From Candidatus Scalindua sp. (GTDB lineage Bacteria; Planctomycetota; Brocadiia; Brocadiales; Scalinduaceae): 32,000 nt of DNA. Positions within the stretch are counted from its first letter, which is position 1; each line of letters starts with the position of its first letter. The notes below the pieces were generated by a model. That model did not search any database and had not been told where the DNA came from. It saw nothing but the letters and a program-made list of their open reading frames with translations. The position numbers were made by a program, and so were the translations under genes. This document shows positions 3,829-30,539 of the stretch, piece by piece. The stretch lies in contig JALDRA010000001.1 of the NCBI GenBank assembly GCA_031316235.1, positions 3,570,001-3,602,000 of the forward strand. The letters run 5' to 3'.

Positions 3829-6564
3829 ATGAAGGCTAAGAAATTACTGATCCCAATTATCATCATATCTGTCTGTCTTGCCGCCTTTATCTGCGCATAT
3901 GTTTTACTGAAAATATATACTTCAGAGGATTCAATCAAATCAAAGATCACGACTGCACTGGAAGCTGCGACCGGTGGCGAATTAAAGATCAAAAATGCTC
4001 ATTTTGACCTGTTCAAGGGAATCCAATTGAACAAAATTGTTTTTTCAGGAAAAAAATCAGAAAATTTACGTATCGAAGTGGAAGAGATACTTATCAGACA
4101 TGAACCAATGGCATTGTTAAGAGGGGAGATTTTAATTGATAGAATTACGATTTTATCTCCCGAACTGTTTATCGTAAGGGAGAAAGATGCAATATGGAGG
4201 TTCCTTAACGGTATTAAGACCTTTGCAGATCATACGGAATTTGCTGTCCAATCTGATATGCTGAGAAACGGTGTTGTTGCAAAAAATGTCCATGTGCATG
4301 TTTTTGACGAGGATATATTCAGGGGAGGCAGTCTGGATATAGAAAACATGAATCTGTCTGCCCAGCCATTTGGTGGGTCATTAAGAGACATACATATAAA
4401 AGCAGTGGTTCATGACGGTTTGTGGAATGGGTTTGATATCAGCATTGATGCGAATCTTGCTGTTCCAGAATTAAAGGTTGTCTCTCAACTGAGAAATAAA
4501 TATATGACTGAAGAACTCATGAAAGAGCTTCCTGTTATTGGAGAGAAGTTCTGGGAGACATATTTACCGACAGGAACATTCGATTTCACCTGTTTCCTTA
4601 CCTTGAATAATAAAGACAACGGGCAGAAGGTAGACTACAACTTCAATCTTGATATTCATGATGCGGAGTTTACATACAAAAAGTGGCCGTTTTTGATAAA
4701 ACACGTCAATGGGTCACTGGAGCATTCCCCGAAGGGTCTGTTTCTTCGGAGCCTGAAGGGAAGTGTTCAGAATGAGATACATGAGTCACTCGGAGAAGTG
4801 GATGCTTACATAGGGATTGGTAATGCACGAAAGAGAATAGATATAAATATTCCGAATTTAAAAATTACGGAAAAACTCCTCAAAATGATTCCGGACAGAG
4901 GGGAGGAGATAAGGGTAAAGTATGACCCGAAAGGGGAAATCGACCTGCGACTGACCTATGAGAGTAATGAAGATAAATCTATGACGGGGTTTTCGGTGAA
5001 AGCGATGTGCAGGGGGGTTGAGGCGAATTATCCCAATTTTCCTTACCGTTTATCTCATATTTTTGGCCAATTAGAAATGAACGGTGAAAATGTATATTTC
5101 AGAGATGTCAGCGGTTCTTTTTTTGACGAAGAGAGAGTGAACCATTTTGCACTTGAGGGAGAAATGAACCTTGAGAGCCAGAAAAAGAGGTTTACCCTCT
5201 CGGCACCAAATCTGAATCTCACCGAACAGATCATCAAGTTCATACCGAACAAGGGAGAAGAAATATGGGAGAAAAACAAACCTGAGGGACAAGTGGACCT
5301 GATGCTTAACTATACGGGTTTTAAGGATAGAAGTGAAGATGAATATTTCATTACCGTTGACTGCAAGGGGAATGAAATTGAATACAGTACGTTACCGATT
5401 ACGGTATCTGATATCATCGGCAGGATAGTAATAGACAAGGAGAAGATTCAGTGTAAGAGTTTGAGGGGCTATGTGGTAACAGGCAAACAGTTATCACGGG
5501 CGACATGTAACGGGGTACTTGGACTGGGCAACGAAAACAAAAAGGCCTTTTTCAGTGTTCTGGGCTTACGGGTAACTGACGACCTGTTAGATAAATTTCA
5601 GAAATATTTTAAAAGCGAATGGGTGCATATTGAGCCGCAAGGTTGGGTAGATGTTGTTTTCGATTACGAGAGCAGTGATAAGGAACCGAAGGATAATTAT
5701 ACTGTCGTCTTGAATACAGAAGGCTGCGAACTGAGTTTTTCAAAATTCCCTTTTCGTGTTTCAGAAATACGTACTCGATTGAATATTGAAAATGGCTATT
5801 TTGTAAACAAGGAATTTAATGGCTCTTTTGGTGGTGGCAGGATCGTTGGAGCAGCTGAGATTGACAAAAACACATCAGACGGAGAGTATAAGGGGGTATT
5901 CAGATTTCGGGATATTGACCTGATTGATTTAGTCGAGCATCTGTTTAAGGAACCAAAAGAGCTATCTGGGATCTGTGATGGAAATGTTGAATTTCATGGC
6001 AGGGGTTCAGACATTAATAATTTTATTGCAAAGGGGAATGCTAAAATAAGTGATGCTTATATTACTGAAGTTCCCTTTATATTGAACATACTGAACCTTT
6101 TAAACCTCTCTATACCGACCAAAGATACATTTCATAGCGCACAGATAAAATACTCGGTGAAAGAGCAGATTGTACACATTGAAGAAATGAAGCTGATAAG
6201 TGATACCATTGAATTGGGAGGTGTCGGAACGGTGGGGCTGGATGGAAAACTTGATTTGATTGTGGTTGCTGGATTTAATAAAGACACATTTTCACAGATA
6301 CCTCTCATCGGCCAACTAATGGATTATGTCGTGGACGGGGTCAGCAAGAAACTTACCAAGGTGGCAGTGACAGGGACATTTTCACATCCGGTGAGTACCA
6401 TAGTAACATTGGAGCAGTTTAAGCACCCGATTAAGAGTATCTTTGATCTGTTATCAAGGGAGAGGGTGAAAAAAACGGGAAAAACAGAAAAGGGAAGTTA
6501 CAGGAATGAAGATAACAAAAATGAGGATATTGGGGATGACGTCAGAAGTCTGGGCATTTTCTGA
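3829..6564 (+). CDS. AsmA/TamB-like membrane-anchored envelope protein with four internal ~119-aa repeats
   Basis: 911-aa ORF. The N-terminal anchor and motif (LLIPIIIISVCLAAFICAYVLL...IKSKITTALEAATGGELKIKNAHFDLFKGIQLNKIVF) resemble AsmA N-termini. The C-terminal part (GNAKISDAYITEVPFILNILNLLNL...GGVGTVGLDGKLDLIVVAGF) resembles the AsmA-like C-terminal region. The central repeats are described in the findings. The coding call is firm. The family assignment is moderate. Confidence 0.65.
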   Translation: MKAKKLLIPIIIISVCLAAFICAYVLLKIYTSEDSIKSKITTALEAATGGELKIKNAHFDLFKGIQLNKIVFSGKKSENLRIEVEEILIRHEPMALLRGEILIDRITILSPELFIVREKDAIWRFLNGIKTFADHTEFAVQSDMLRNGVVAKNVHVHVFDEDIFRGGSLDIENMNLSAQPFGGSLRDIHIKAVVHDGLWNGFDISIDANLAVPELKVVSQLRNKYMTEELMKELPVIGEKFWETYLPTGTFDFTCFLTLNNKDNGQKVDYNFNLDIHDAEFTYKKWPFLIKHVNGSLEHSPKGLFLRSLKGSVQNEIHESLGEVDAYIGIGNARKRIDINIPNLKITEKLLKMIPDRGEEIRVKYDPKGEIDLRLTYESNEDKSMTGFSVKAMCRGVEANYPNFPYRLSHIFGQLEMNGENVYFRDVSGSFFDEERVNHFALEGEMNLESQKKRFTLSAPNLNLTEQIIKFIPNKGEEIWEKNKPEGQVDLMLNYTGFKDRSEDEYFITVDCKGNEIEYSTLPITVSDIIGRIVIDKEKIQCKSLRGYVVTGKQLSRATCNGVLGLGNENKKAFFSVLGLRVTDDLLDKFQKYFKSEWVHIEPQGWVDVVFDYESSDKEPKDNYTVVLNTEGCELSFSKFPFRVSEIRTRLNIENGYFVNKEFNGSFGGGRIVGAAEIDKNTSDGEYKGVFRFRDIDLIDLVEHLFKEPKELSGICDGNVEFHGRGSDINNFIAKGNAKISDAYITEVPFILNILNLLNLSIPTKDTFHSAQIKYSVKEQIVHIEEMKLISDTIELGGVGTVGLDGKLDLIVVAGFNKDTFSQIPLIGQLMDYVVDGVSKKLTKVAVTGTFSHPVSTIVTLEQFKHPIKSIFDLLSRERVKKTGKTEKGSYRNEDNKNEDIGDDVRSLGIF

Positions 6565-6731
6565 TTTTACATTCCTGCTCGTTTGAATCTGAAATAGAGC
6601 GTGTTTTTGTTTTCAATTTCTGTATAATATGTATTTCTCTGGTCGAGAGGACCAAACGTGTCTTTTACTTAATAAAGAGCGTATTATTATAATCTACCAC
6701 TCAAAAGACTGGTATAAATAAAGGTATTGTT

Positions 6732-8615
6732 ATGAAAGAACCGGAAAAGAAATTTTCAAAGCCTTTTTCAAAAAATCAATTAAAATCTCCATTTTTTATT
6801 ATTATTCTTGTAGCCATCATCCTTGCTACTTTTCAAATTTATACCGTCGGGCCTGTTACAAAAAACATATCATATAGTGAATTCAAGATGTTTCTCAAAG
6901 ACGGCAGAGTTGATACATGCCAGGTTACCTCCAGCCTTATAAGGGGTAATTTGAAAAATGAAGACAATTTCAATGCCCAAAAGGGCTTTGTTACTGCCAG
7001 GGTTGAAGATCCTGATCTTGTGAAAGAGCTTGAGACACAGGGTGTGAAATTTTCTGGTGAATATGAAAGCCCATGGATACAGACCTTGTTGTTTACCTGG
7101 ATAATCCCAATTGCCGTCTTCTTTCTTATCTGGCGGTTTGTATTAAAGGGAATGGGCCCTGCAGGCGGTGTTATGTCATTTGGTAAGAGCAAGGGAAAAT
7201 TATATGCCCAGGAAGATTTGAAATTTACCTTTAAAGATGTTGCAGGTATAGATGAGGCAAAGACGGAATTGTCCGAAGTGGTTGAGTTTTTAAAGACACC
7301 TCATAAATTCACGAGCCTCGGTGGCAAGATCCCGAAAGGAGTACTGCTTGTCGGAGCACCTGGTACCGGGAAGACCCTGCTTGCCAAAGCTGTTGCTGGA
7401 GAGGCAGGAGTCCCTTTTTTTGGCATCAGTGGTTCTGAATTTGTTGAGATGTTTGTCGGAGTTGGAGCGGCTAGAGTAAGGGACATGTTTAGTCAGGCAG
7501 ATCAGAAAGCACCTTGTATCATCTTCATTGACGAACTTGATGCCCTTGGTAAGACAAGGGGAATTAATCCGATGGGGGGGCATGACGAAAGAGAGCAAAC
7601 ACTCAATCAGTTGCTGGTAGAGATGGATGGTTTCGATTCTAATAAAGGTGTCATTATTATGAGCGCAACGAACAGGCCCGAGATTCTTGATCCAGCCCTT
7701 ATGAGGCCTGGGAGGTTTGACAGACAAGTTGTTGTTGACAGGCCGGATTTGAATGGTCGAGAGGCGATCTTGGATATTCATGTAAAAGGGGTAAAACTTT
7801 GCAAGGATGTCGATAAGAGAGCCATTGCTGCTATGACGCCCGGTTTTGTTGGTGCTGATTTGGCAAACATAGTGAATGAGGCAGCCTTGCTTGCAGCAAG
7901 ACGTGAAAAAAAAGCTGTTGAAATGGCTGATTTTGAAGAGGCAATAGAAAGAATCATGGCCGGACTTGAGAAGAAGAAAAGGCTCATAAACAAACGTGAG
8001 AAAAAAATAGTGGCCTATCATGAATGTGGACATGCGCTTATCGCAACGTTTCTTCCAACTACTGACGAAGTAAAGAAGATTTCAATTATACCGAGAGGAG
8101 TTGCTGCATTGGGTTATACCCTGCAATTGCCAACTGAGGACAGATATCTGATGACCCAGAAGGAGCTCGAAGACAGAATATCGGTACTCCTGGGTGGAAG
8201 AGCTGCGGAGAGCCTGATTTTTGGCGAAGTATCAACAGGGGCTCAAAATGATCTTGAAAAGGCAACTGAAATAGCAAAAAAAATGGTGAAGTTTTATGGG
8301 ATGAGTGAAAAACTGGGCATCGTTACCTTTGAACAGGAGAACCGCTCTGCTTTTTTCCCGGGGTATGGTGGTACAAAGAATGATTATAGCGAAGAAACTT
8401 CAAGAGAGATAGACCTTGAAGTGAGAAGGATTATCGATGAAACATTTGTGAAAACCAATGAACTTTTAGAAGAAAAGAAGGATTTGCTCATCAAGATTGC
8501 GGAAATCTTGATGGAAAAAGAGGTGATAGACAGAAAAGAGTTGCTGGAGATACTTGGCAGGGAAAATGAGGAGGCTACCTCTGCGGATGGGGAGGAACTG
8601 GATGGGAAGATCTAG
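6732..8615 (+). CDS. ftsH: ATP-dependent zinc metalloprotease FtsH
   Basis: 627 aa with two N-terminal TM helices. Motifs are Walker A GAPGTGKT, Walker [30 protein letters not shown] and zinc site HECGHAL. Confidence 0.96.
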
Positions 8616-12500: not shown

Positions 12501-13109
12501 ATGGGCAATCACAAGATCATTGTTAATCATGGCACGCATATCATCAAAACTGACTTCCTCAATTTTTTGAACCTCATGTGATGTTCTGAAACCGTCAAAG
12601 AAGTGCATGAATGGAATCCTCGATTCAAGTGTTGCCGCTTGAGCGATGAGGGCAAAATCCATTGATTCCTGTACGTTTTGAGAGCACAGCATGGCAAATC
12701 CTGTAGAGCGGGCAGCCATTACGTCTGAATGATCTCCAAAAATGGATAATCCCTGGGCGGCAAGGGAACGGGCGGTTATATGAAAGACAGTTGGCGTTAA
12801 TTCACCCGCTATCTTGTACATATTTGGAATAATAAGCAGAAGGCCTTGAGAGGCTGAAATAGTTGTAGCTAAAGCACCGGTAGTAAGAGAACCGTGTACT
12901 GCTCCGGCAACACCTGCTTCTGACTGCATCTGGCTAACCTTTGGCACAGACCCCCATATATTTACTTCTCCTTTTGCCGACTTTGCATCACAAATTTCTG
13001 CAATGGCTGATGAAGGTGTTATGGGGTAAATGGTAATAATCTCATTTGTTGCATGTACAACGTGGGCACATGCAGCGCATCCATCCACAATTACGGTATT
13101 TCGACTCAT
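9525..13109 (-). CDS. nifJ: Pyruvate:ferredoxin (flavodoxin) oxidoreductase, single-polypeptide type
   Basis: There are two ferredoxin-type clusters, CIQCAQCSFVCP and CTGCGSCVFNCP. The TPP-binding motif is GGDGWGYDIGYGG. The ORF track starts at TTG 13124. I prefer ATG 13109 (MSRNTVIVDG) because GAAGGAG lies ~7 nt upstream of it. Confidence 0.95.
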   Translation of the reverse strand: MSRNTVIVDGCAACAHVVHATNEIITIYPITPSSAIAEICDAKSAKGEVNIWGSVPKVSQMQSEAGVAGAVHGSLTTGALATTISASQGLLLIIPNMYKIAGELTPTVFHITARSLAAQGLSIFGDHSDVMAARSTGFAMLCSQNVQESMDFALIAQAATLESRIPFMHFFDGFRTSHEVQKIEEVSFDDMRAMINNDLVIAHRGRGLTPDRPSIRGTSQNPDVYFQGRETVNKYYEAAPEIVQKAMDKFAGIVGRQYKLFDYLGNPEAERVIVVMGSAGEVALNTVNTLNAKGEKLGIVLVRLYRPFDIEAFTDSLPATVKSIAVLDRTKEPGAIGEPLYLDVRTAIGEMMDRGTSKLTVYPKVIGGRYGLGSKDFTPAMVKAVFDNLSSEKPKNHFTIGIKDDVCGTSLDYDESFDVGDKNEFRSLFYGLGADGTVGANKNTIKIIGDETDNYSQAYFVYDSKKSGATTVSHLRFGKDRIHKPYLIKKANFIACHNPSFPDKIDMLSNAEEGATFLLTTSHKKDDVWDTLPVEVQEQLISKKMKFFIVDAISLAEEIGLGARINMIMQTAFFVISGIIPKEDAVKSIKTEIKKTYMRKGEDIVNLNYKAVDYALQNIVEVPVPDKATSTIRMRPPVPDNAPAFVKKVTAKILANNGDSLPVSAIPSDGTWPTGTTQYEKRNIGINIPIWEPDACIQCAQCSFVCPHASIRVKAYEPSELNGAPSAFKSIDATGKDLKGLKFTVQVAPEDCTGCGSCVFNCPGQKKDADGNKIEGIKAINMKTQETFRKEEAENYDFFLNLPETDRSRFKVTNVKGSQFVKPLFEYSGACLGCGETPYIKLMTQLFGDRLIIANATGCSSIYGGNLPTTPYTTREDGRGPAWSNSLFEDTAEFGLGMRQTMDKFHTQAMELMDIFSANPAYADLKDLFVAIKNADTSSQEGIEEQRGRVAELKKKLSANGSPEARNLLSLADYIVKKCVWAIGGDGWGYDIGYGGVDHVLATGENIKLLIMDTEVYSNTGGQMSKATPLGAIAQFAAGGKRTPKKNIGMIMSTYGNVYIAQVAFGANPAQTLKAFIEADAYDGPALIIAYSNCIAHGMDMSKGVEAMKKAVSSGYWPLYRYNPELEAQGKNPLVINSKDPSTPFEEYAYRENRYKALRASNPEMAKELMKKAKANIMRRWKLLKHMATWDPEA

Positions 13110-13134
13110 AAGTTTCTCCTTCAATTAGCGAACC

Positions 13135-13150
13135 TGGCAAGCAAGGTGCA
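13135..13150 (+). promoter_or_regulatory. Sigma-54-type -24/-12 promoter-like motif
   Basis: TGGCAAgcaagGTGCA has GG at 13136-13137 and GC at 13148-13149, which is the canonical spacing of TGGCAC-N5-TTGCA. Two non-core mismatches are present. It points rightward, away from nifJ and into the IS, with no ORF immediately downstream. Confidence 0.25.
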
Positions 13151-13321
13151 GGTGTTTTATAAAAAACATTTTTAACTAGTATGTTTAAAAGATTTTATGT
13201 GTGACTTATCTATAATATGCAGCTTTATACGCTACGAAAGCATGGAGTATAAATATAATGTTTTTATTAAGAAAGTAAACATAAAACTTTGGAGCTGACA
13301 AAACGGAAGTGAAGAGAGAAC

Positions 13322-13342
13322 TATAGAGCCTCCGCATAAACT
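13322..13342 (+). repeat. IS terminal inverted repeat (transposase-distal end)
   Basis: tatagagcctccgcataaact matches the reverse complement of 15331-15351 at 18/21 positions. Confidence 0.7.
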
Positions 13343-13501
13343 CGAACGAAAAGTGTTCAACGCAAAATTTTTTTTACTCGTATTTCAAAATCAAGTAAAA
13401 AGCAAACAGAAAGAAATAGCACAGCACCAATAATGGAGGTAATTTGCAAATTTGGAAACACCTCTCCCATGGTCTTTTATTTTGCTTCCAGAAACATCAA
13501 T

Positions 13502-15106
13502 TTAATTCTGTAACAAGAGGTGAAAAGCAATCATCGTCTTATCCAGGTATGCCTGAAATGAGAGATTCCCTCTCTTGCTTAAACGATCATCACCACTATC
13601 ACACTTCAGCCGCTTTATCATCCGCTCAACTGAAGGGCGACGTGTCATTATCGCCTTAAATCTCTTTGCCATCGGAGGGTCTTCTGTGTCTATGTGGGAT
13701 AACAATCCAAATGATATATTAATCATCCTGCCGGTTAGCGAATTGGGGCAACACTCTACCTGATGCCGGCATGTTGAACACACCGATCCTCCATCTGTAT
13801 CCGTTGGCGCATGATAAATGAATTTCTCTCGTTCATAACGCATTCCTTTGTAATCCATCTCATGGCCCCCATTGCAAATTACGACACCATACGGCGTTAT
13901 CTTCTCCATACCACGCGGCAACCCAACTGTTACTTCCCTCTGACGCCTTGGATTTAAAGATGCCTTTAATTCCAGCCCAAGTTTGTCCATAAACTTATCT
14001 TTCAAATCTTTGCTGTCACACGCACTATCATACAATGCTCTTTTAACCGATTCTTTAATTACCGGATAGGTATCAAATACTTCTTCTATATGCGGAAGAA
14101 ATGTCTCTCCATCATGGGTCGGTCCATCCAACACCGCCCTTGCATCCAAAGGCACCCCTTGGCGGGGAAAACCGACAATGCTTGCTTTGTGGCCCCAATA
14201 CATCTTTGTTATGGATTTCACGATTGTTCCCGCTCCTTCATCTGCCAGTACCCAGTCATGTTCACACTTGTCTCTGTCTTGACAGCGACACTTCTTGGTT
14301 AACTTTGATTGCGACTTCCTCTGCTCCTTGCCGTCTTTGTCTTTATACTTTACTGTCTCAAACCCTGAATACGCATAATAGTGGGTTGTATCTCCGACTA
14401 CTTCTTTCTCTATTTTAATCGCACCTGTCTCTATGTTTTCAGTCACCAGCATAATCTTCATCTTATCCCATAGCCCCCATTCACTCATGATCTGGTCAAA
14501 CTGCTGCAGTTTACGCTCACTCGGGATATGCCTGCTGCAATACTCATCCCTTTCTCCTTTCGGCGCAAATCCACATACTCGGACAAAACTCGGATTACTC
14601 TTTAATAACATGGACACCTTTTCCGGTTCGCACGGAAATCCCATGAGCGCTGTACCCAAAAAACTCTTCAACAACGCAAAAAAACACTTTGGCCTCTTAC
14701 CTCCCAATCGAAATGGTACTACCCCGGGAGATATCCTAAAGGGATTTACCATCTGGACTTTGGATTCAGCCTTTACTTCATAAAGTACTCTACTTTTTTT
14801 CTCCTTATCAACCTGCATGGTTACTCTATCAAATAAAAGCAGCTGCCTTCTATCTTCTTTGCTCTGAGACAATACAACGTTCTTTTGGAGTTTACTCTCT
14901 TGCCTCTTTCTCTCTTCTCGCTTATTAAATTCATAAAGCGCATCATAATACTCAGCACCAAAAACACGGTGTTTCTCCCAGGGAAAATAATATAAAACCC
15001 TAAACCACTCTGCATCTGGCGTATTAAGCAGTACCTTGTCGTCTTCGTGAACGGTGTGAATGAGAAGTGGTTTTTGGTTGCTTTCAATTTGTGATAATGG
15101 TAGCAT
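13502..15106 (-). CDS. DDE transposase (IS4/IS5 superfamily, family not assigned)
   Basis: 534 aa. The candidate catalytic triad is VVGDTTHY, ALYDSACDS and RPSVERMIKRLK. The last motif fits R-x3-E-x6-K of the IS4-type YREK signature. Cys-rich inserts are CRCQDRDKCEH and CSTCRHQVECC. Confidence 0.85.
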   Translation of the reverse strand: MLPLSQIESNQKPLLIHTVHEDDKVLLNTPDAEWFRVLYYFPWEKHRVFGAEYYDALYEFNKREERKRQESKLQKNVVLSQSKEDRRQLLLFDRVTMQVDKEKKSRVLYEVKAESKVQMVNPFRISPGVVPFRLGGKRPKCFFALLKSFLGTALMGFPCEPEKVSMLLKSNPSFVRVCGFAPKGERDEYCSRHIPSERKLQQFDQIMSEWGLWDKMKIMLVTENIETGAIKIEKEVVGDTTHYYAYSGFETVKYKDKDGKEQRKSQSKLTKKCRCQDRDKCEHDWVLADEGAGTIVKSITKMYWGHKASIVGFPRQGVPLDARAVLDGPTHDGETFLPHIEEVFDTYPVIKESVKRALYDSACDSKDLKDKFMDKLGLELKASLNPRRQREVTVGLPRGMEKITPYGVVICNGGHEMDYKGMRYEREKFIYHAPTDTDGGSVCSTCRHQVECCPNSLTGRMINISFGLLSHIDTEDPPMAKRFKAIMTRRPSVERMIKRLKCDSGDDRLSKRGNLSFQAYLDKTMIAFHLLLQN

Positions 15107-15330
15107 TCTTGTGTGTCCTTTCTTGTATAGTAGTTTGTGTTGTTGTGTGACTTCTATTATACAAGTTGGGCACCGTATTTTGTAATTTTACTTTTGCATT
15201 TTGTAAATTATTTTGCAAAACCCTTTAAAATACGGCATCCTGACTCGTTGGTACATTCTTCTTGTCACTCTTTTTACAAAAAACTACCACTAACGTTTCC
15301 CATAACTTATTTACTAACAAAAGCTTTGTA

Positions 15331-15351
15331 AGTTTATGCGTCTGCTCTATA
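15331..15351 (-). repeat. IS terminal inverted repeat (transposase-proximal end)
   Basis: agtttatgcgtctgctctata. See the partner repeat at 13322-13342. Confidence 0.7.
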
Positions 15352-15505
15352 AATATATCCGGCAGTAACCGGGAAAAAGAGGGTCGTGTTTTGAGGGCAT
15401 AGGTTTCATTATGAGAAGGTGTCTTCTGGGTTGAAGTATGTATGCATTTCAGTTAACTGCAGAGTTTGCAGATGAAAGTGTTCGGATGTGTCAGTGCAGT
15501 GGTAA

Positions 15506-15618
15506 TATACTCATCTCATACTGGATTTCGGATAAAATCCGAGATACAATTGAGCGAGTATACCAGCAACCAAGATCTGGTTTCCGGTAAAACCGAAAAC
15601 CAGATAGATTTCAGTATA
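15506..15618 (+). repeat. Full-length (113-bp) divergent copy of the TATACT...AGTATA MITE-like repeat
   Basis: tatactcatctcatactggatttcggataaaatccgagatacaattgagcgagtataccagcaaccaagatctggtttccggtaaaaccgaaaaccagatagatttcagtata is colinear with 23959-24070. Confidence 0.85.
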
Positions 15619-15655
15619 TCAAAATTATTTTTGATTAATTAACTTATTTTGATAT

Positions 15656-15829
15656 TTTTCAGTAGTGTCCGGTTAGGTTTTTGCGTATGTAATTTATTGC
15701 CCAAAAACTGTCATTCCCGCATGTTTTTAGCGGGAATCTATGATGAAACGAGTCTCTGGATACCCGATAAAGACGTTCGGGTATGACAAAAGCAGTCTAC
15801 GCAAAAACCTAACCGGACACTGTTGAAAA
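15656..15829. repeat. 174-bp palindromic MITE-like element with 32-bp terminal inverted repeats
   Basis: The left arm ttttcagtagtgtccggttaggtttttgcgta (15656-15687) matches the reverse complement of 15798-15829 at 30/32 positions, with the inner 24 bp perfect. The interior holds two hairpins, attcccgc/gcgggaat and atacccg/cgggtat, clamped by tgtcat/atgaca. Confidence 0.8.
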
Positions 15830-15931
15830 CCAATATATGATGAGTATAGGAAGACAATGCCGGAAATTTTTTTTATTTAAAGTGAAAAGAAGGAACTTTA
15901 TTATTGTCAGAATTGTTGTAAAATACGATGA

Positions 15932-24764: not shown

Positions 24765-26240
24765 ATGCGATCAAAATTTTTCCCCATTGTTTCAGGATGT
24801 TTTGGCCTGGCGATTTCAATTCCGCTCTTTTTATTCTCAATAACCGCTCCAGCCCGGATTACCACGTTCCCTGAATCACTTTTGGCCGCCTTAAGTCCTG
24901 GAAGCGTGAAAGTCTCAATGTTACCGGCAGCTCAATCCGGACAAGGGACGTTTCATTTCTTGACCAAAAAGCCGGTGTTCTCCACACTTATCTACCCTGA
25001 AACAGAGCAAAAGGCCATGAGCATGCTTAAGGCAAAGGGGCATTCTTTTTACCAGCAACTCTGCAGCTGGCAGGAAGGGCGCAAGGCACAGCTCCTGTAC
25101 CCACTGAGTGATTTGAGAGGCAGTCCGACGAAGATACTCTTTCTCCTGTTTTCAATTCTGCTGGAAACGGGAGACATCTCTTTAGAGTTGAAAAATAATC
25201 TTGAAAAAGAGATGATTCAAGCTCCGGAAAAAGAGTGGGGATCCTTCGAGAAATCTGCGCTGAGTCTTCTGTACTTATCCAGGCGGCTCTCACTGGAAGA
25301 TCTTGGCATGTTCGTGCGTTTATCAGATCAAAGCGCTTCCCTGGGCACATTTGCCGCTTTCTTACAGAAAATGCCAGACCAATCTGCAGATCTTTTAAGA
25401 ATTGCACAACAGCTTAATCCTGAAACAGTAGCAGGTTTCTTCAATTATCTCGCCAGATGGGAAACAACAGGAATCAACACTCTTTTGCAGGCTCATAAAC
25501 TGAGCCCTGAGGCGTTTACGTTCTTGCTGGAACATCAAAGAGGTATTGGTGCAGACTGGCCACGGTTTTTATCAAATGAGTATTATCCCATTGCATGGTT
25601 TAATACTATCCATGCAGCTGATCCCAACTACGCTTTTGGTTTAAAGTCCTTGTTCACGTTTGTTTCAATCTTCCTCTTCCTTTTTTCAGTTTCTATCCTG
25701 ACTGTTCGATTACAAGTCAGTTACTGTTTACTGTTTGTGAGTAATGCTGTTTTGTGTACCCTTATTTTATCGCTTGGATTTGAAAGGGGGCCGCTGATCG
25801 AGCCCGATCTTCCTGTCTTAAGGCTGAGTAATGCTGTTTCGGATAATCTCTTTAATTCTGCATCATCCATAAAAGGAGCTACCGGTATGAATTTTATTTC
25901 ACTTGCATTCACGATCTTTTTTTTCTTTATTCAGATGTTCTTTTATTTTCTGGGAAGGAACACTATTGACAAAATTAAAAAAATGGCCGCGGATGCATCT
26001 ACTAAAATTAAGCTTTTAGACAATGAGGATCACCTGTTTGATTTCGGACTCTACGTAGGATTAAGCGGTACGGTCCTGTCACTGATTGTGATTACCATGG
26101 GGTGGTCGGACATTGGGTTAATGAGCGCCTATACATCTACACTTTTCGGCATCATCGAAGTGGCACTCTTAAAACTCATTTCGCTGAGGCCATACAAGAA
26201 AATGCTCATTCTTGAAATCTGTGCCTTAGAGAAAGCATAA
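24765..26240 (+). CDS. Polytopic membrane protein with C-terminal MotA/ExbB/TolQ-like three-helix module
   Basis: 491 aa. It has an N-terminal signal or anchor, a ~270-aa helical soluble region and TM helices from ~residue 295. The last ~117 aa have TolQ/ExbB topology and motifs (GLYVGLSGTVLSL; AYTSTLFGIIEVALLKLI). The coding call is firm. The homology call rests on motifs only. Confidence 0.55.
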   Translation: MRSKFFPIVSGCFGLAISIPLFLFSITAPARITTFPESLLAALSPGSVKVSMLPAAQSGQGTFHFLTKKPVFSTLIYPETEQKAMSMLKAKGHSFYQQLCSWQEGRKAQLLYPLSDLRGSPTKILFLLFSILLETGDISLELKNNLEKEMIQAPEKEWGSFEKSALSLLYLSRRLSLEDLGMFVRLSDQSASLGTFAAFLQKMPDQSADLLRIAQQLNPETVAGFFNYLARWETTGINTLLQAHKLSPEAFTFLLEHQRGIGADWPRFLSNEYYPIAWFNTIHAADPNYAFGLKSLFTFVSIFLFLFSVSILTVRLQVSYCLLFVSNAVLCTLILSLGFERGPLIEPDLPVLRLSNAVSDNLFNSASSIKGATGMNFISLAFTIFFFFIQMFFYFLGRNTIDKIKKMAADASTKIKLLDNEDHLFDFGLYVGLSGTVLSLIVITMGWSDIGLMSAYTSTLFGIIEVALLKLISLRPYKKMLILEICALEKA

Positions 26241-26243
26241 AAA

Positions 26244-27824
26244 ATGAACAGAACACTTTTGATTGTCGTTTGTGATTTTTTAATTATCAGCATCCTGTCA
26301 TTAGGAAATTACTCGGATTTTTTGTCCGGAAGAAATCAGGGGGTGGCTGGAAATGGGGGGGAGACCGTTCAGTCAGATATTCTTGACTCACTGGCGACAA
26401 CACTTGAGATTGAAAAGGATATGTACGCAAAACTGCAGGCATCTATTGAGGAAAAAGAAGAGGAGTTACAGAAAGAGAGCGGTATAAAAAGAGAGATTGA
26501 GGAAGAGCTGAAAGAGTTGCACAAAGAGAGTGCACAACTGGACAAACTCCTTCATATGGAAAAGGGAGAACTAGCAAAAATGGCCTCACACATGGATGCT
26601 ATAGAGGCCGAACTATCTGAAAAAAACAGGTTGAATACGTTGCTGAAGGGACAATTTGAACGGGAGCAGGAGAAGTCGGAGACCATTGAAAAAAGTCTCA
26701 AGGAAAAAACACAGAGACTTGAAATCGCGCAGGCAGAATTGCATACAGCCTTGCATAGTATAGAGTCCTTAAGCAGTGAGATGGCGGGTTCAAAAGAGTA
26801 TTTCAAGAGATTGGAAAAGCAGGCAACAGAACAGATGGAGAATCTTTCTCAAGTTCAGACTGCTTATTCCGTCATGCAGGAGCAATTGAAAACTCGCTCT
26901 CAGGAAAGAGATGAACTGGCGTACCAGAAACGGAGATTGGAGCAGCAGGCACGTGATATGGAAAAGGAGATCGATGAGAAGAATGAAGACTTGGCAAAAG
27001 CCAGGGAACATTCACTTCTCCAGGAGTTGGCAAAGAATAAAGAGCTGGCGGAACGGGAGAAGACCCTGGCGGTTCAGGAAAAACAGATTGAGACAATGGA
27101 ATTACAGCTTCTGAACTACTCAAACAACGAACTGTTTCAACGGTTTTTAGACAGGAGATGTGAAATTACCCTTGAAGCGGAGGCGAAAGGCCTTTTCTCA
27201 CCGGTTGCTTATCTCAATAAAATGGAGGCGGTTCTCGTAAATACGCCAGACCAAACCGGACTTCTGATACATTATAAGGATTCTCCCCTCAACTGGTCCA
27301 ATTTCAAAAGAGACCTGGAAACTTTTTCGCTTGATATTCTGCTCAAAGGTCAGAGTGCCCGGACTTCATTATCTTCTCTCTGCGCTTTAGAGGCAGACCC
27401 TCGAATCCTGTTATTAAAACTAACTAATCCGATTCCCGTACCTGATGTTTTGTTTGAAATAGAGACAGAAATTTTCCGATTCGACGACGCGCTTTTGATT
27501 CGAGGGAATGAGGGGAAGTATGGTACATTTAAAATGAAGCTTATCCATGGCAGGCCCAATTACTTCCAGGTGCCCTCTTCTCTTAAGACCAGGCTTTTTG
27601 GCTCATTTTCACCAAGGCCCGGTGATCTGGTCTTCAGCCGCAACGGGAAGTTGCTGGGAATCATGGTCTCAACAAGAGAGGCCCTGAGGCTCAGCAGCCT
27701 TAGCTGTGTTGAAACATTTCGAACTGGAAAACCACAAGATCAGGTAACCCATCAAGAGACATACCAGAAATGGGAAAACAGGTTGAATTCTGATGCTTTC
27801 TCATTACCCGAAGAGAGTAATTAA
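26244..27824 (+). CDS. Single-pass membrane protein: TM helix with buried Asp, ~250-aa coiled coil, C-terminal degenerate trypsin-like beta-barrel
   Basis: 526 aa starting 3 nt after the upstream stop. The N-terminus is MNRTLLIVVCDFLIISILSL. Residues ~45-295 are heptad-rich and E/K/Q/L-dominated. The C-terminus contains DPRILLLKLTNPIP and RPGDLVFSRNGKLLGIMVS, which resemble the Asp and Ser-region motifs of S1/DegP-type proteases, but with no Ser. Confidence 0.55.
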   Translation: MNRTLLIVVCDFLIISILSLGNYSDFLSGRNQGVAGNGGETVQSDILDSLATTLEIEKDMYAKLQASIEEKEEELQKESGIKREIEEELKELHKESAQLDKLLHMEKGELAKMASHMDAIEAELSEKNRLNTLLKGQFEREQEKSETIEKSLKEKTQRLEIAQAELHTALHSIESLSSEMAGSKEYFKRLEKQATEQMENLSQVQTAYSVMQEQLKTRSQERDELAYQKRRLEQQARDMEKEIDEKNEDLAKAREHSLLQELAKNKELAEREKTLAVQEKQIETMELQLLNYSNNELFQRFLDRRCEITLEAEAKGLFSPVAYLNKMEAVLVNTPDQTGLLIHYKDSPLNWSNFKRDLETFSLDILLKGQSARTSLSSLCALEADPRILLLKLTNPIPVPDVLFEIETEIFRFDDALLIRGNEGKYGTFKMKLIHGRPNYFQVPSSLKTRLFGSFSPRPGDLVFSRNGKLLGIMVSTREALRLSSLSCVETFRTGKPQDQVTHQETYQKWENRLNSDAFSLPEESN

Positions 27825-27926
27825 TGGTGGTTGAGGCCAAACTTTCATCTACTGTGTTACGGTAATAATTTTGTAATCCTCTCGTTCGGTATATAGTACG
27901 TTCAGGTTTCCGAATTTATCAGGCGT

Positions 27927-27958
27927 CCTGTGTCTGAACAGTTTTTGTTCAGACAGGG
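27927..27958 (+). terminator. Candidate intrinsic terminator or stable hairpin downstream of the 24765-27824 pair
   Basis: A perfect 10-bp stem tgtctgaaca (27931-27940) / tgttcagaca (27946-27955) closes a 5-nt loop. Flanking CC/GG pairs extend it. It is followed by only a short T tract (gggtttccgtt). Confidence 0.35.
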
Positions 27959-28272: not shown

Positions 28273-29790
28273 TCAGGCCGTATGTTTCAACCTCAGGCCC
28301 TTTGGCACAAGGAACCTCTCCATGATCTCAAAACAACCTTGTACGATAAGGGCAAGTACTGCTGCCGGAACTGCCCCCTGAAGGATAAGAGACATATTAT
28401 CCAGCCTGATACCGGTAAGGATCAGTTGTCCATAACCACCAGCACCGATAAGCGCACCCAATGTTGCGGTTCCAACGTTAATGACAGCGGAAGTCTTGAT
28501 GCCTGCCAGAATAGAGCGTGACACTATTGGCAACTCGACCAATCTGAGCCTTGCTCCCGGCGGGAGTCCAAGCGCTTCTGCAGACTCCCGTATCTGTGGA
28601 CGAATATCATGAATGCCTGTATAGGTATTCCTTACAATTGGTAAGAGACTGTAGAGAAAAAGCGCCGCAATTGCCGGAGGCCCGCCAATACCCAGTAACG
28701 GAATCATGAAAACAAGAAGGGCTATTGAGGGAATGGTCTGGATGACACCAACTATGCCCAGGATAACCTGTCCCAATTTCGGTCTCTTTGCCGAAAGGAT
28801 ACCCAGCGGTATTGAGATCAGGATAGCGGCTGATAATGAGATTGCGACCAGATAAAGATGTTCTCCTGTATGATGGAACAGACGGCCAATAGCGCTCTCT
28901 TCAATAAAACCGGTCTCCAGAGAGAGACTTTCGGACAGAAAGTCAGAGGCTATCCGGGTTTCCGGTACCATTTCCAGGTTTGCACGGGAATTCATTTTGA
29001 TCATTTCCGATTCAGAAATTCTACTCTCAAGCTTTTTGAGAACAGCTACTACATGAGGAGCATGTTCTTCCAAATCTGACCGATACAGGATTACGGCATT
29101 GTACACGGGAAAATGATCCAGATCGTCCTCCAGTATCCGCAGATTATAATACCGGATCTTGGCGTCGGTTGAATAGATATCAATCGCGTCAATAGTGCCT
29201 TTGTTGAGACCCCGATAGGCAAGATCATGATCCAGGCCTCGTACATCCTGCTGAGGTAAATTGTAATTTTTACGCAGGATTCGCCAGCCGTCTCCCCGAT
29301 CCATGAACTCATTACCGAAACCGAATTTTAAATCAGGATGGTGGCGCAGGTCTGAGATTTTCTGAATTTTCAACTTTTCCGCAACTTCCTCTTTCATACC
29401 AATGGCGTAGGTATTGGTAAAACCCAATGTCTTTGTCATCTTAATACCATGATTACTCAGGGCCTGCCGGATCTCCTCACCACTCTGAACTCCCTCATCC
29501 GCCAGGATTTCCTCGCTGATTGTGCCTGTATATTCAGGGTAAATATCAATCTCACCTTTTATTAAGGCATTCCACAGTACACGTGTACCTCCCAGTTCCC
29601 GCTTATAAACAGGCTGTGCCCCGGTACTCTTTATCAGATGAGTCACTATCTCACCCAGAATTACAGATTCAGTAAACTTCTTAGAGCCAATCCTGATCTC
29701 CGGTGGTGCACTCTGTACAACAGGAGGAAAGAAATGTGCAATGAAAATATTGCATGCAAACACGTATATGGTAAAAAGATATGTTTTCAC
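28273..29790 (-). CDS. Fused substrate-binding / permease subunit of a glycine betaine/choline/carnitine-type (OpuC/OpuB-like) ABC transporter
   Basis: 505 aa with a GTG start overlapping the upstream stop (GTGA). The N-terminal signal plus OpuAC-type binding domain reads IRIGSKKFTESVILGEI...YPEYTG. The C-terminal permease has the EAA-like loop ESAEALGLPPGARLRLVELP. Confidence 0.88.
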   Translation of the reverse strand: MKTYLFTIYVFACNIFIAHFFPPVVQSAPPEIRIGSKKFTESVILGEIVTHLIKSTGAQPVYKRELGGTRVLWNALIKGEIDIYPEYTGTISEEILADEGVQSGEEIRQALSNHGIKMTKTLGFTNTYAIGMKEEVAEKLKIQKISDLRHHPDLKFGFGNEFMDRGDGWRILRKNYNLPQQDVRGLDHDLAYRGLNKGTIDAIDIYSTDAKIRYYNLRILEDDLDHFPVYNAVILYRSDLEEHAPHVVAVLKKLESRISESEMIKMNSRANLEMVPETRIASDFLSESLSLETGFIEESAIGRLFHHTGEHLYLVAISLSAAILISIPLGILSAKRPKLGQVILGIVGVIQTIPSIALLVFMIPLLGIGGPPAIAALFLYSLLPIVRNTYTGIHDIRPQIRESAEALGLPPGARLRLVELPIVSRSILAGIKTSAVINVGTATLGALIGAGGYGQLILTGIRLDNMSLILQGAVPAAVLALIVQGCFEIMERFLVPKGLRLKHTA

Positions 29791-30539
29791 CCGGAATCCT
29801 TCCTCGTGCCGTCTAATGACCTCCTCTGGGCATTGATGAAGCAGGTAACAAACGGATCAGCCGGTGAGTGTATGAGCTCTTCCAGTGTGCCCTGCTGCAG
29901 AACCCTTCCATCCCTCAGCAGAGTAATACTATCCCCGAAGAAACCGGCTTCCGCTATATCGTGGGTTACCAGGACAACTGTTTTGCCAAGTGTCTGGAAG
30001 ATCATTTTCAGATCCACCTGAAGATCGGCCCTTATCATCGGATCAAGGGCACCGAGGGGTTCATCCAGAAGGAGCACGTCCGGGTCTAACATGAGGGCAC
30101 GCATCAGGCTTACCCGCTGTTGCTGACCACCTGAAAGCTGCACGGGGAAACGTCCAAGACCTTCAGATGGAAAATGCGTCAATTCGGTTAACTCATCCAG
30201 GCGTTCTTTAATCCGTTCAACACTCCAGCCCAGATAGCGTGCCATCAGTGTCACGTTGCCATACGCGGTCAGATGAGGGAAAAGGCCTCCCTCCTGGATA
30301 ACATAACCCATCTTTCGCCTTAAAGAGATTACAGCATCAGGAGTGACCATGGTTCCTTCGACAGAAACAGATCCACTGTCTGCCTCTATAAGGCCGATGA
30401 TGAGACGGAGTATAGTTGATTTTCCACAGCCGCTCTGGCCGATGAACACCGTTGTCCGACCGGTTGGAATGGTTAAATCGATGGATTTAAGTGCCCTGGT
30501 TTTACCATAGATTTTGGAAACATCCTGCATTTTAATCAC
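29787..30539 (-). CDS. ABC transporter ATP-binding subunit (OpuCA/ProV-like, no CBS domains)
   Basis: 250 aa. Motifs are Walker A GQSGCGKST, signature LSGGQQQRV, Walker B LLLDEP and H-loop VTHD. The GTG start has AGGA ~8 nt upstream. Confidence 0.92.
   Translation of the reverse strand: MIKMQDVSKIYGKTRALKSIDLTIPTGRTTVFIGQSGCGKSTILRLIIGLIEADSGSVSVEGTMVTPDAVISLRRKMGYVIQEGGLFPHLTAYGNVTLMARYLGWSVERIKERLDELTELTHFPSEGLGRFPVQLSGGQQQRVSLMRALMLDPDVLLLDEPLGALDPMIRADLQVDLKMIFQTLGKTVVLVTHDIAEAGFFGDSITLLRDGRVLQQGTLEELIHSPADPFVTCFINAQRRSLDGTRKDSG

Follow-up and report, generated by a model that had tools for sequence, protein, structure and literature searches.

Locus and gene pair

Two genuine adjoining genes, ORF1 and ORF2, lie on the forward strand of a genome of Candidatus Scalindua (a marine anammox bacterium), within the window analysed here (the whole stretch of 32,000 nucleotides).

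24765..26240, + strand: ORF1, putative A-like subunit (491 aa; from the ORF listing)
26238..26246, + strand: ORF1/ORF2 junction, TAA-aaa-ATG (3-nt spacer)
26244..27824, + strand: ORF2, putative B-like subunit (526 aa; from the ORF listing)
27919..27937, + strand: terminator-like hairpin with downstream T-run (about 95 nt past the ORF2 stop)

An earlier note, made from the letters alone, had described the genes as a translationally coupled, stator-like pair, and all of its sequence-level statements held when the ORFs, the junction and the segments were re-read. The junction reads ...GCA TAA AAA ATG AAC..., with the stop at 26238-26240 and the start at 26244, and such a 3-nt spacing makes translational coupling of the two genes probable. 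The hairpin possibly marks the end of a two-gene operon, although it is suggestive by its position alone, since the number of sites of this type does not exceed the expectation from shuffling.

The C-terminal core of ORF1 defines a large family (504 clusters at 50% identity; at least 541 species-genome matches, chiefly in Verrucomicrobiota, where members are usually 550-570 aa long), for which model scans returned no matching Pfam, NCBIfam or PADLOC family. Across Scalindua and Verrucomicrobiota, the survey of synteny proposed by the note placed an ORF2-type partner directly downstream of the A-like gene in 63 of 78 genomes, while no partner was found within 6 kb of it in about 15. In 25 of the 62 related genomes, the end of the A-like gene and the start of its partner share 1 or 4 nt, and the pair is near-universal within whole Verrucomicrobiota orders. 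The flanking genes are housekeeping genes that differ from lineage to lineage, and the pair is thus a self-contained two-gene module. The description of the pair as an orphan is borne out, as Pfam scans of the window's 19 other large ORFs showed no Ton, Tol, flagellar, gliding or Zorya genes.

Architecture of ORF1

Six TM helices are predicted in ORF1, and its AlphaFold2 model has a pLDDT of 84.5.

24777..24845, + strand: TM1, N-in signal-anchor helix (residues 5-27)
24846..25622, + strand: all-alpha soluble domain, predicted periplasmic (residues 28-286; helices at pLDDT of about 90)
25623..25892, + strand: TM2-TM3 hairpin (residues 287-338) and acidic, disordered periplasmic linker (residues 339-376)
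25893..26042, + strand: TMa (residues 377-398) and 28-residue cytoplasmic loop
26043..26174, + strand: TMb-TMc hairpin, a core resembling TM2-TM3 of TolQ/ExbB (residues 427-470)
26175..26240, + strand: basic cytoplasmic tail (residues 471-491; conserved R475-P476) and stop TAA

TM1 is indicated by a modelled helix (2-27), a hydropathy peak and an N-terminus rich in K/R. A public record that is 100% identical to ORF1 gives a product of 407 aa, which falls 84 residues short of the present reading and therefore lacks TM1; the 491-aa reading is better, because TM1 is kept across the family and is confidently modelled, as is P29, which at least 90% of members share. The soluble domain that follows, placed in the periplasm by positive-inside analysis, has no significant PDB match by Foldseek and resembles no known fold. 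TM2 and TM3 correspond to modelled helices 287-313 and 319-338; the acidity of the subsequent linker comes from loop-charge analysis, and its pLDDT falls below 50 at residues 355-374.

Conservation concentrates in the C-terminal module, i.e. the last ~120 residues, which comprises TMa, a short cytoplasmic loop and the TMb-TMc hairpin. The segments on which the note had based its TolQ/ExbB-like topology are all present (MNFISLAFTIFFFFIQMFFYFLG at 375-397, the charged loop at 398-427, GLYVGLSGTVLSL at 428-440 and GLMSAYTSTLFGIIEVALLKLI at 451-472). In alignment A4 (126 sequences of the ORF1 family), the invariant residues are F386, Q390, N420, E421, F425, L429, G432, G435, Y456, S458, G462, K470 and R475. 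Two of these (F386 and Q390) lie in TMa, and the loop keeps the motif K414-x2-L417-L418-x-N420-E421-x3-F425-D426, of which N420, E421 and F425 are invariant in alignments A1, A4 and A5 and the remaining residues are conserved in at least 90% of sequences. The hairpin carries GLYVGLSG-T436 in TMb (T436 codon 26070-26072) and AYTS-T459-LFG in TMc (T459 codon 26139-26141); G432, G435, Y456, S458 and G462 are invariant here, and both threonines occur in at least 90% of sequences. Charge analysis places the TMa-TMb loop, with 5.0 K+R on average in the family, and the C-tail, with 4.2, in the cytoplasm and the TMb-TMc turn in the periplasm, in agreement with TM2-TM3 of TolQ.

Architecture of ORF2

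The AlphaFold2 model of ORF2 (pLDDT 78) consists of a TM helix (3-20), a single long helix (42-290) and a beta domain (305-495), i.e. proportions similar to those of TolA (TM, ~250-residue helix, globular head).

26253..26303, + strand: TM helix with invariant Asp11 (residues 4-20)
26367..27113, + strand: coiled-coil stalk (residues 42-290, about 250 residues)
27141..27734, + strand: trypsin/HtrA-like double beta-barrel (residues ~300-497)

The protein starts with MNRTLLIVVCDFLIISILSL, and D11 is encoded by GAT at 26274-26276. Its most conserved stretch is the 13-residue N-terminal motif M-N-[KR]-x-L-L-x3-x-D-F-L, in which M1, N2, L6, D11, F12 and L13 are invariant (alignment A2). The buried Asp singled out in the note is conserved without exception, both in the full-length homologues from protein search (35/35) and in the partners read from genomes (Asp at position 11 in 62/62). 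An invariant D11 and such strong conservation of these 13 residues would not be expected of a plain signal peptide. The helix is oriented N-in/C-out by charge analysis, and, with membrane depth read from sequence, D11 and the ORF1 threonines T436 and T459 are each separated from the cytoplasmic side of the membrane by 8-11 residues. The ORF2 N-terminal helix and the ORF1 C-terminal module are the best-conserved parts of two families whose genes are adjacent in dozens of genomes.

The long coiled coil and the protease-like barrel described in the note are both recovered. The stalk is modelled as helices 42-209 and 211-290 with a low-confidence break near 203-214, and its profile matches are solely to myosin, tropomyosin and SMC coiled coils. 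With the barrel, Foldseek matches Deg9, DegS, Deg2, HtrA1 and DegQ (E 4e-5 to 1e-3, probability 1.0) as well as MamO (5hma); the HtrA matches span ~200 residues at ~12% identity. The fold of residues ~300-497 is thus shared with HtrA/DegS/DegQ and with the degenerate protease domain of MamO, whereas ORF2 has no PDZ domain.

A fold match to HtrA, DegS and DegQ at a probability of 1.0 suggests a membrane-tethered HtrA-type protease that serves regulated proteolysis or the quality control of the envelope, in which ORF2 would be active or substrate-activated and ORF1 would serve as a regulator or substrate gate. His, Asp and Ser do occupy the aligned catalytic columns (set by DegS His96 and Ser201) in 62 of 96 family members, but the full triad is absent in 35% of the family. 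In the Scalindua clade the nucleophile column holds Arg, Lys or Glu instead of Ser; the residue here is Arg458 (alignment to DegS, DegP and DegQ), and the head of this protein is therefore a pseudoprotease-type domain. Furthermore, P-S/R-R/P-G-D replaces the ‘GNSGG’ oxyanion loop, Trypsin_2 and other Pfam protease models are unmatched in the Pfam scan, and the invariant residues of the barrel are D385-P-R387 and G460-D461 rather than the triad. As a protease would also leave the invariant D11 and the conserved ORF1 module unaccounted for, this explanation is improbable.

Possible relationship to ion-driven motors

The similarity of ORF1 to MotA/ExbB/TolQ claimed in the note stands in part. An hhalign comparison of the ORF1 module with a TolQ/ExbB profile (75 sequences) gives a score of 31.2 (E 5e-4, probability 31.5%) over 42 columns, an overlap dominated by two short motifs. 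ORF1 429-471 is paired with TolQ 138-189 (TM2-TM3), such that G435-T436 falls on G144-T145, T459 on T178 and G462 on G181, and E. coli ExbB alone gives the same register. Reversed profiles score 16-17 and none of the 180 column shuffles reaches 31.2 (maximum 28.2), while 272 unrelated multi-TM decoy ORFs score 13.7 +/- 2.7 (maximum 21.9) and the 75 TolQ/ExbB sequences 24.8 +/- 1.9, with 74 of the 75 above the decoy maximum. Judged from sequence, the resemblance may be one of convergence.

The similarity does not extend to HMMER-level or fold-level searches. The Pfam models MotA_ExbB (PF01618), ExbD, MotB and OmpA are found in neither ORF; PF01618 touches only 2 of 60 ORF1-family modules (best E 1.7), fewer than are touched by unrelated TM families, DUF2231 for example (13 of 60). 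NCBIfam and PADLOC scans of both ORFs returned nothing relevant, PDB sequences searched with the family profiles yielded no motor chain, and with the reciprocal TolQ/ExbB HMM the family members stay at or below the decoy maximum. Foldseek with the confident ORF1 model retrieved no ExbB, TolQ, MotA, GldL or ZorA chain, and E. coli MotA gave no alignment with the ORF1 module. The parallel drawn between the ORF2 helix and those of TolR, ExbD and MotB likewise finds no counterpart in sequence similarity.

These negative results, together with a short ORF1 cytoplasmic loop that leaves little space for an ExbB/TolQ/MotA-type cytoplasmic domain, favour a static envelope scaffold, in which ORF2 would be a membrane-anchored coiled-coil tether in the periplasm with a peptide-binding pseudo-HtrA head and ORF1 its polytopic partner, with no ion flow. 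D11 would then be an intramembrane polar contact holding the proteins together, for example with Q390, S458, T436 or T459; buried Asp/Thr/Gln contacts are a frequent means of TM-helix assembly, and strict co-inheritance suits any obligate complex. Nevertheless, a scaffold leaves unexplained the specificity for TolQ/ExbB TM2-TM3, with the threonines in register and the score above all shuffles and decoys. Moreover, the arrangement of ORF2 and ORF1, in which a single-pass N-terminal helix has an acidic residue that never varies and is encoded next to a multi-TM gene, is a hallmark of ion-coupled B subunits (PMC12204202), and the scaffold is considered rather unlikely.

The preferred reading, to which a probability of about 0.5 is assigned, is that the pair forms an ion-driven motor, TolQ/ExbB-like but divergent, in whose B subunit an Asp helix of the TolR type is joined to a stalk like that of TolA. 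Going by weak sequence signals, the family may be a remote and rebuilt relative of the TolQR/ExbBD envelope motors, which are driven by protons. As in TolQ-TolR(-TolA) and ExbB-ExbD(-TonB) (PF01618/PF02472), the A and B genes are adjacent and coupled, the ORF1 hairpin has the predicted topology of TolQ TM2-TM3 and aligns with it with both conserved pore threonines in register, and ORF2 shares with TolR/ExbD a lone N-in helix in which an Asp is invariant, and with TolA the proportions of stalk and head. The differences are considerable: neither protein matches the Pfam models, the cytoplasmic loop has 28 residues (TMa-TMb) as against ~100 in TolQ/ExbB, and ORF1 carries ~370 extra N-terminal residues (three TMs and the periplasmic helical domain). 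Similarly, the Asp helix of ORF2 has a 3-residue cytoplasmic stub, its head has an HtrA fold, the ExbD/TolR periplasmic fold is absent, and the pair has no separate TolA/TonB gene.

A conceptual precedent is available in the predicted TPH-vWA proteins, which join an Asp-bearing transpore helix to a non-canonical periplasmic domain alongside a TolQ-like pentamer without tolR, and such predicted TPH-vWA/TolQ-like pairs have been reported from Verrucomicrobia too (PMC12204202, section 8). The shared concept is an Asp transpore helix fused to a non-canonical periplasmic effector, with an A-type partner and no tolR/exbD. In those systems, however, the tolQ homologue is recognisable and the pairs are often heterologous, whereas ORF1 is invisible to Pfam; the effector is a vWA domain there and a coiled coil with an HtrA-like barrel in ORF2.

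GldL-GldM of type IX secretion and gliding is also a two-gene motor, in which the GldM dimer carries force to the outer membrane, and ORF2 shares with GldM the single TM helix at the N-terminus and a long body, which in GldM spans the periplasm. The key charged residues of GldLM (an acidic residue on GldL and an Arg on GldM, according to the literature) are arranged otherwise than in ORF1/ORF2, the periplasmic part of GldM consists of globular domains instead of a coiled coil, and the GldL and GldM Pfam models match neither ORF at E <= 10.

Zorya (ZorA-ZorB) has a MotAB-like 5:2 unit together with a coiled coil of great length, and one homologous locus (L009) lies near Mrr-type and DruA-domain genes; both observations would suit a module for defence against phages, Zorya-like or other, with a MotAB-like sensor in the membrane as its basis. 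In Zorya, however, the coiled coil belongs to the A subunit ZorA, whose cytoplasmic tail it forms, while in the present pair it lies on the B-like, periplasmic side, and ZorB bears a peptidoglycan-binding domain. The pair has no zorC/D-like or nuclease partners, and the PADLOC ZorA/ZorB models are unmatched (nothing for ORF1; coiled-coil noise alone for ORF2, ZorA3 E 2.8). As the flanks are housekeeping and lineage-variable, and as presence throughout whole Verrucomicrobiota orders is at odds with the patchiness of defence islands, a role in defence is very improbable.

ORF1 and ORF2 would most likely form a two-component inner-membrane machine that works in the manner of the TolQR/ExbBD-type 5:2 motors with very divergent parts. 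Several copies of ORF1 would surround two ORF2 helices, and protonation and deprotonation of D11 against a ring of threonines would allow a flow of protons (or Na+) that drives a rotary or piston-like movement of the ORF2 dimer. The coiled coil of this dimer would form a stalk across the periplasm, and the pseudo-protease head may grip a target, either a peptide or a protein, at the outer membrane or the peptidoglycan, by which grip the ion-motive force would reach the outer envelope. A single ORF2 chain would accordingly unite the role of TolR (ion-coupling helix) with that of TolA/TonB (stalk and binding head), while the extra periplasmic domain of ORF1 may have a regulatory or anchoring role specific to this family.

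The gene pair and the extent of its families

The known 5:2 ion-driven motors (MotAB, ExbBD, TolQR, GldLM, AglRQS and ZorAB) drive flagella and nutrient import, sustain outer-membrane integrity, underlie gliding and secretion, and serve in phage defence. With every family added, a further means of using ion-motive force beyond the cytoplasmic membrane has come to light. ORF1 (A-like, i.e. TolQ/ExbB-like) and ORF2 (B-like) define a large and wholly unannotated family, whose carriers (Verrucomicrobiota and anammox Planctomycetota) have a poorly understood envelope biology. Both reading frames were recovered exactly as the earlier note had placed them, with the junction TAA-aaa-ATG between them.

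Features of the gene pair (nucleotide positions in the window; residue ranges from the AlphaFold2 models)
24765-26240 (+): ORF1, A-like protein, 491 aa (whole model: pLDDT 84.5)
ORF1 residues 2-27: transmembrane (TM) helix TM1
ORF1 residues about 30-285: all-alpha domain
ORF1 residues 287-313 and 319-338: TM2 and TM3
ORF1 residues 355-374: disordered linker
ORF1 residues 377-406, 411-425 (short), 427-444 and 448-490: helices of the C-terminal module
26244-27824 (+): ORF2, B-like protein, 526 aa (whole model: pLDDT 78)
ORF2 residues 3-20: TM helix
ORF2 residues 42-290: nearly continuous helix
ORF2 residues 305-495: beta-rich domain
About 95 nt 3' of ORF2: terminator-like hairpin

Database entries 100% identical to the two proteins belong to Candidatus Scalindua sp. 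and carry adjacent locus tags (MRK01_15100 and MRK01_15105). The public ORF1 entry (MRK01_15100) is of 407 aa and starts 84 residues downstream, leaving out residues 1-84 (window 24765-25016). As these residues include a TM helix that is family-conserved and confidently modelled, the 491-aa reading is preferred, and the deposited start is probably a start-site miscall.

Single-sequence scans of both proteins against Pfam, NCBIfam and PADLOC gave no family match beyond coiled-coil noise, and a literature search found no paper describing the family. Close homologues of ORF1 are present in Scalindua and Brocadiaceae (71-86% identity) and more distant ones in Verrucomicrobiota (about 28-32% identity, 550-580 aa), with conservation concentrated in the last ~120 residues, termed the module here. 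Among 1.84 billion representatives, a profile of this module matched 504 clusters at 50% identity (246 at E <= 1e-30), always at the C-terminus. All 150 matches listed from the representative-protein search were true family members (E < 1e-37), and this list, saturated with such members, left no room for a bridge to PF01618 proteins to show. Species-representative genomes yielded at least 541 relatives; of the 80 listed, almost all belong to Verrucomicrobiota (Opitutales, Puniceicoccaceae, Coraliomargarita, Lentimonas, Pedosphaera, Limisphaerales, Verrucomicrobiaceae and the cultured Cerasicoccus frondis). The family is near-universal in several Verrucomicrobiota orders and is also present in marine anammox Scalindua.

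The expectation that the two genes would be syntenic was borne out: the partner (an ORF2-type gene) adjoins the A-like gene in 63 of 78 evaluable genomes, starting -4 to +134 nt from its stop and overlapping it by 1 or 4 nt in 25 of the 63. Adjacency was also seen in every lineage inspected by hand, while the flanking genes vary between lineages. An exception is formed by some 15 genomes of one subclade, largely animal-gut Opitutales (including Candidatus Merdousia, a Hadza gut MAG and Puniceicoccaceae Marseille-Q1082), in which no partner lies within 6 kb and lpxA-like and pdxA-like genes directly follow the A-like gene. These partnerless modules retain all conserved residues; the partner may have moved elsewhere, or the A-like protein may be able to work with something else.

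Partnerless loci (position within each fetched locus)
L114, L117, L118, L131, L134, L136, L146, L148, L150, L170 and L172, about 6300-8100: A-like gene without an adjacent partner

Two short contigs assigned to other phyla, from a Polaribacter sp. MAG (L111, Bacteroidota) and a Leisingera sp. MAG (L168, alphaproteobacterial), carry verrucomicrobial-type members with 47-60% identity to the module, most likely reflecting mis-binning rather than a genuine presence beyond the PVC group. In a metagenomic genome of 4.9 Mb (L009), the pair is flanked by an Mrr-type restriction gene (5379-6221) and a DruA/transposase-domain gene (12816-15116), which is the sole defence-like context among the inspected loci.

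The C-terminal module of ORF1

Positive-inside counts over 126 sequences predict a cytoplasmic location for the N-terminus, the TM2-TM3 loop, the loop between TMa and TMb of the module (5.0 K+R) and the C-terminal tail (4.2 K+R), and a periplasmic one for the large helical domain and the acidic linker preceding TMa. So placed, the TMb-TMc hairpin is predicted to enter from and return to the cytoplasm, like TM2-TM3 of TolQ/ExbB, and ORF1 would have the motor topology of an out-to-in TM helix (TMa) followed by a hairpin. In contrast to TolQ/ExbB, where the cytoplasmic domain is of ~100 aa, and to MotA, where it is larger, ORF1 has no sizeable domain of this kind, the TMa-TMb loop being of 28 residues (399-426) with one short helix.

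A profile-level match of ORF1 to MotA_ExbB, as anticipated in the earlier note, was not obtained by HMMER, PF01618 being absent at E <= 10. When run against 60 diverse modules one by one, PF01618 matched 2/60 with a best E of 1.7, which is noise level and rarer than chance matches to unrelated TM families. The reciprocal search with a TolQ/ExbB HMM did not place family members above multi-TM decoys (a separation of no use), and searches of all PDB sequences with ORF1 family profiles, both full length and module alone, returned no motor chain. Foldseek with the full 491-aa model gave no PDB match at E < 0.6, which is a weak test for a small helical module within a large query.

Profile-profile comparison yielded a different picture. 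Searching for homologues of E. coli TolQ gave nothing beyond orthologues of >= 82% identity, too uniform for a diverse profile. TolQ sequences were drawn from a metagenome scan (yielding 73 TolQ and 56 TolR sequences; a viral-contig scan for TolQ relatives yielded none), and the 73 TolQ together with E. coli TolQ and ExbB constituted the TolQ/ExbB profile (n=75). Against it, hhalign placed ORF1 429-471 of the 60-sequence module profile on TolQ 138-189 (score 31.2, pairwise E 5e-4, probability 31.5%), with G435-T436 on TolQ G144-T145, T459 on T178 and G462 on G181. These positions are the two pore-lining threonine motifs that had been flagged from the sequence; we take the conserved Thr of the TM2-TM3 hairpin to be T145/T178 in TolQ and T148/T181 in ExbB, with the signature G-x-G-T / A-x3-T-x2-G. 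E. coli ExbB alone gave the same register (E 0.011), and E. coli MotA gave no hhalign signal with the module.

As controls, reversed profiles scored 16-17, and 180 column-shuffled queries averaged 13.5-16.5 with a maximum of 28.2, none reaching 31.2. With the module profile, a small decoy set of 272 unrelated multi-TM ORFs, drawn from 1.3 Mb of fetched loci, scored 13.7 +/- 2.7 (maximum 21.9), and the 75 individual TolQ/ExbB sequences, which are non-independent, scored 24.8 +/- 1.9; 74 of the latter exceeded the decoy maximum, and in 74/75 the G-T motif fell inside the alignment. The claimed likeness to the TolQ/ExbB motifs accordingly stands at profile-profile level, with both Thr motifs in register, and fails in every HMMER-level test, so that the Thr-bearing hairpin of ORF1 is recognised at motif and profile-profile level only. 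The signal is consistent and specific, if modest, and falls short of proof of homology; within a small database, TolQ/ExbB ranks first among the families, and the functional residues align in register.

The N-terminal helix, stalk and head of ORF2

ORF2 is predicted by charge to be N-in/C-out, and its family hallmark is the N-terminal stretch M-N-[KR]-x-L-L-x-x-x-x-D-F-L, the best-conserved of the whole protein. The buried Asp proposed as the ion-coupling residue (D11) is invariant in all full-length ORF2 homologues, with Asp at position 11 in 62/62 genome partners. ORF2 combines the single N-terminal TM helix, the conserved Asp and the adjacency to an A gene that characterise B subunits. Given such conservation of the segment and its Asp, a mere cleavable signal peptide was rejected, and so was a lipobox at C10 (VVC is no lipobox, and C10 varies to V, I, S or T). 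The suggested similarity of residues 1-40 to TolR/ExbD and MotB profiles did not materialise in hhalign, where little is to be expected from ~20 residues, and ORF2 has no Pfam or NCBIfam match to ExbD/TolR (PF02472) or MotB (PF13677 plus OmpA PF00691).

The coiled coil and protease-like barrel read from the sequence were both seen in the AlphaFold2 model and by Foldseek; in their place, known B subunits carry the ExbD/TolR periplasmic fold or an OmpA-like peptidoglycan-binding domain. Searched against all PDB sequences, the ORF2 family profile retrieved myosin and tropomyosin only, and no motor chain. Residues 4-176 (window 26253-26771), starting at the TM helix, weakly match NCBIfam NF006543 (PRK09039 'peptidoglycan-binding protein'; E 2.6e-4, 20.9 bits, cut-off 305), which may reflect TM plus coiled-coil composition or may point to another TM-plus-coiled-coil envelope family. 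In verrucomicrobial homologues (L001:11834-13429 and L003:11783-13375), the coiled coil ends in tandem 'L-G-A-G-V-x-Q' heptads (for example, ELGAGVNQLGAGVNQLGQGV); some sources label such homologues 'X-X-X-Leu-X-X-Gly heptad repeat protein', and the Scalindua ORF2 lacks the repeat.

The C-terminal head has a double beta-barrel chymotrypsin fold, matching Deg9, DegS, Deg2, HtrA1 and DegQ in the PDB (Foldseek E 4e-5 to 1e-3, probability 1.0, about 200-230 aligned columns) and also the degenerate MamO domain. A weak HH alignment (probability 1.2%) to E. coli DegS, DegP and DegQ tentatively places H343 on the catalytic His and Arg458 in the column of DegS S201, a column occupied by R/K/E in all Scalindua homologues; in these tentative columns, H-D-S is present in 62/96 family members. 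In this ORF2, the oxyanion loop differs from that of HtrA (P-R-P-G-D instead of G-N/D-S-G-G) and the catalytic triad appears incomplete; the invariant residues of the head are D385-P-R387 and G460-D461. The head is read as a pseudoprotease-type binding domain, in Scalindua at least, where an active HtrA protease was rejected because the tentative nucleophile column holds no Ser. That the pair is a tethered protease or regulatory system, as the fold and the H-D-S members might suggest, is considered improbable beside the replaced nucleophile and altered loop.

Placing of the pair and its genomic setting

The pair is read, with a probability of about one half, as an ion-driven TolQ/ExbB-like motor, in which the pseudo-HtrA head would hold a target and the ORF2 coiled coil would transmit force to it. 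None of the alternatives formulated suits the combination of features as well as the TolQR/ExbBD class does. The Asp, invariant and mid-membrane, sits on an N-in helix that crosses the membrane once, next to a co-inherited multi-TM partner; the terminal hairpin of this partner resembles TolQ/ExbB TM2-TM3 with one Thr per helix at about the membrane depth of the Asp; the topology matches, and the Asp-bearing subunit has a periplasmic stalk-plus-head. The gene pair, its conservation and synteny, the soluble-part folds, the predicted topology and the profile-level resemblance are shown by the analysis, and the oligomeric state, ion flow, movement and target are the inferred part of this reading. 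ORF2 resembles a TolR coupling helix fused to a TolA-like body. An analogous fusion is offered by the predicted 'TPH-vWA' proteins, also present in Verrucomicrobia, in which an Asp helix would enter the pore of a TolQ-like pentamer and tolR is lacking (PMC12204202). A survey of MotAB relatives divides them into two clades, the flagellar stators (FIT) and ExbBD/TolQR-like generic ion transporters (GIT) (PMC12505986).

Like PF01618/PF02472 motors, the pair has an Asp helix and a hairpin bearing Thr residues, with a corresponding topology and operon arrangement, and yet it is not fileable under these families because it lacks the HMM match, the cytoplasmic domain and the periplasmic B-domain. A static envelope scaffold, in which D11 would be no more than an assembly contact, is held to be the next most probable reading, clearly behind the motor; the small share of probability left over by these two, by the tethered protease and by phage defence falls to something else. 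With slightly less confidence than the motor reading itself, the pair may be assigned to an unrecognised, Pfam-invisible 5:2-type motor family, with the Asp helix, a periplasm-spanning coiled-coil stalk and a pseudo-HtrA gripping head in the B subunit, energising an outer-envelope process in PVC bacteria. If so, two genes would suffice for both motor and force transducer, the TolQ/ExbB core could shrink to ~120 residues with hardly any cytoplasmic domain, the roles of TolR and TolA could fuse in one chain, and the HtrA fold would be reusable as a force-bearing binding head. If the pair is no motor, it would still be a conserved phylum-wide envelope complex that deserves the family definition it lacks. 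Carriers in culture (Cerasicoccus frondis, Coraliomargarita and Lentimonas) make the hypothesis directly testable.

By Pfam, the 19 other large ORFs of the window constitute a miscellaneous housekeeping neighbourhood (DnaJ-TPR, a sigma-54 activator, an AsmA-like protein, FtsH, ScpB, PFOR, an ECF sigma/anti-sigma pair, a B12 radical-SAM enzyme and an OpuA-type ABC transporter, among others), and the same neighbours are present in another Scalindua genome. In agreement with the earlier note, no Ton, Tol, flagellar, gliding or Zorya genes are among these 19 ORFs. A role in phage defence, as for ZorAB, is very improbable: no zorC/D-type partners were found among the window neighbours, and PADLOC ZorA/ZorB models gave nothing for ORF1 and a ZorA3 match at E 2.8 on the ORF2 coiled coil alone, and a defence system was rejected on these two grounds. 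Neither the Rfam scan nor the tRNA scan of the window gave a match.

Three neighbours merit mention in their own right. Between PFOR and the ECF sigma factor, a 534-aa ORF (13502-15106, minus strand) with a weak DDE_Tnp_1_6 transposase match (E 8e-4, below cut-off) is flanked by gaps at 13125-13501 and 15107-15931 (the latter an 825-nt gene-free stretch) and may be a degenerate or novel insertion element. Directly upstream of ftsH, a 911-aa protein (3829-6564, plus strand), whose sole similarity is N-terminal and AsmA/YhdP-like (AsmA E 3e-8), is a possible bridge-like lipid-transport protein, of divergent sequence, from an anammox organism. Finally, an OpuAC glycine-betaine-binding domain and an ABC permease domain are fused in one 505-aa ORF (28273-29790, minus strand), whose start overlaps the upstream ATPase gene (29787-30539) by 4 nt.
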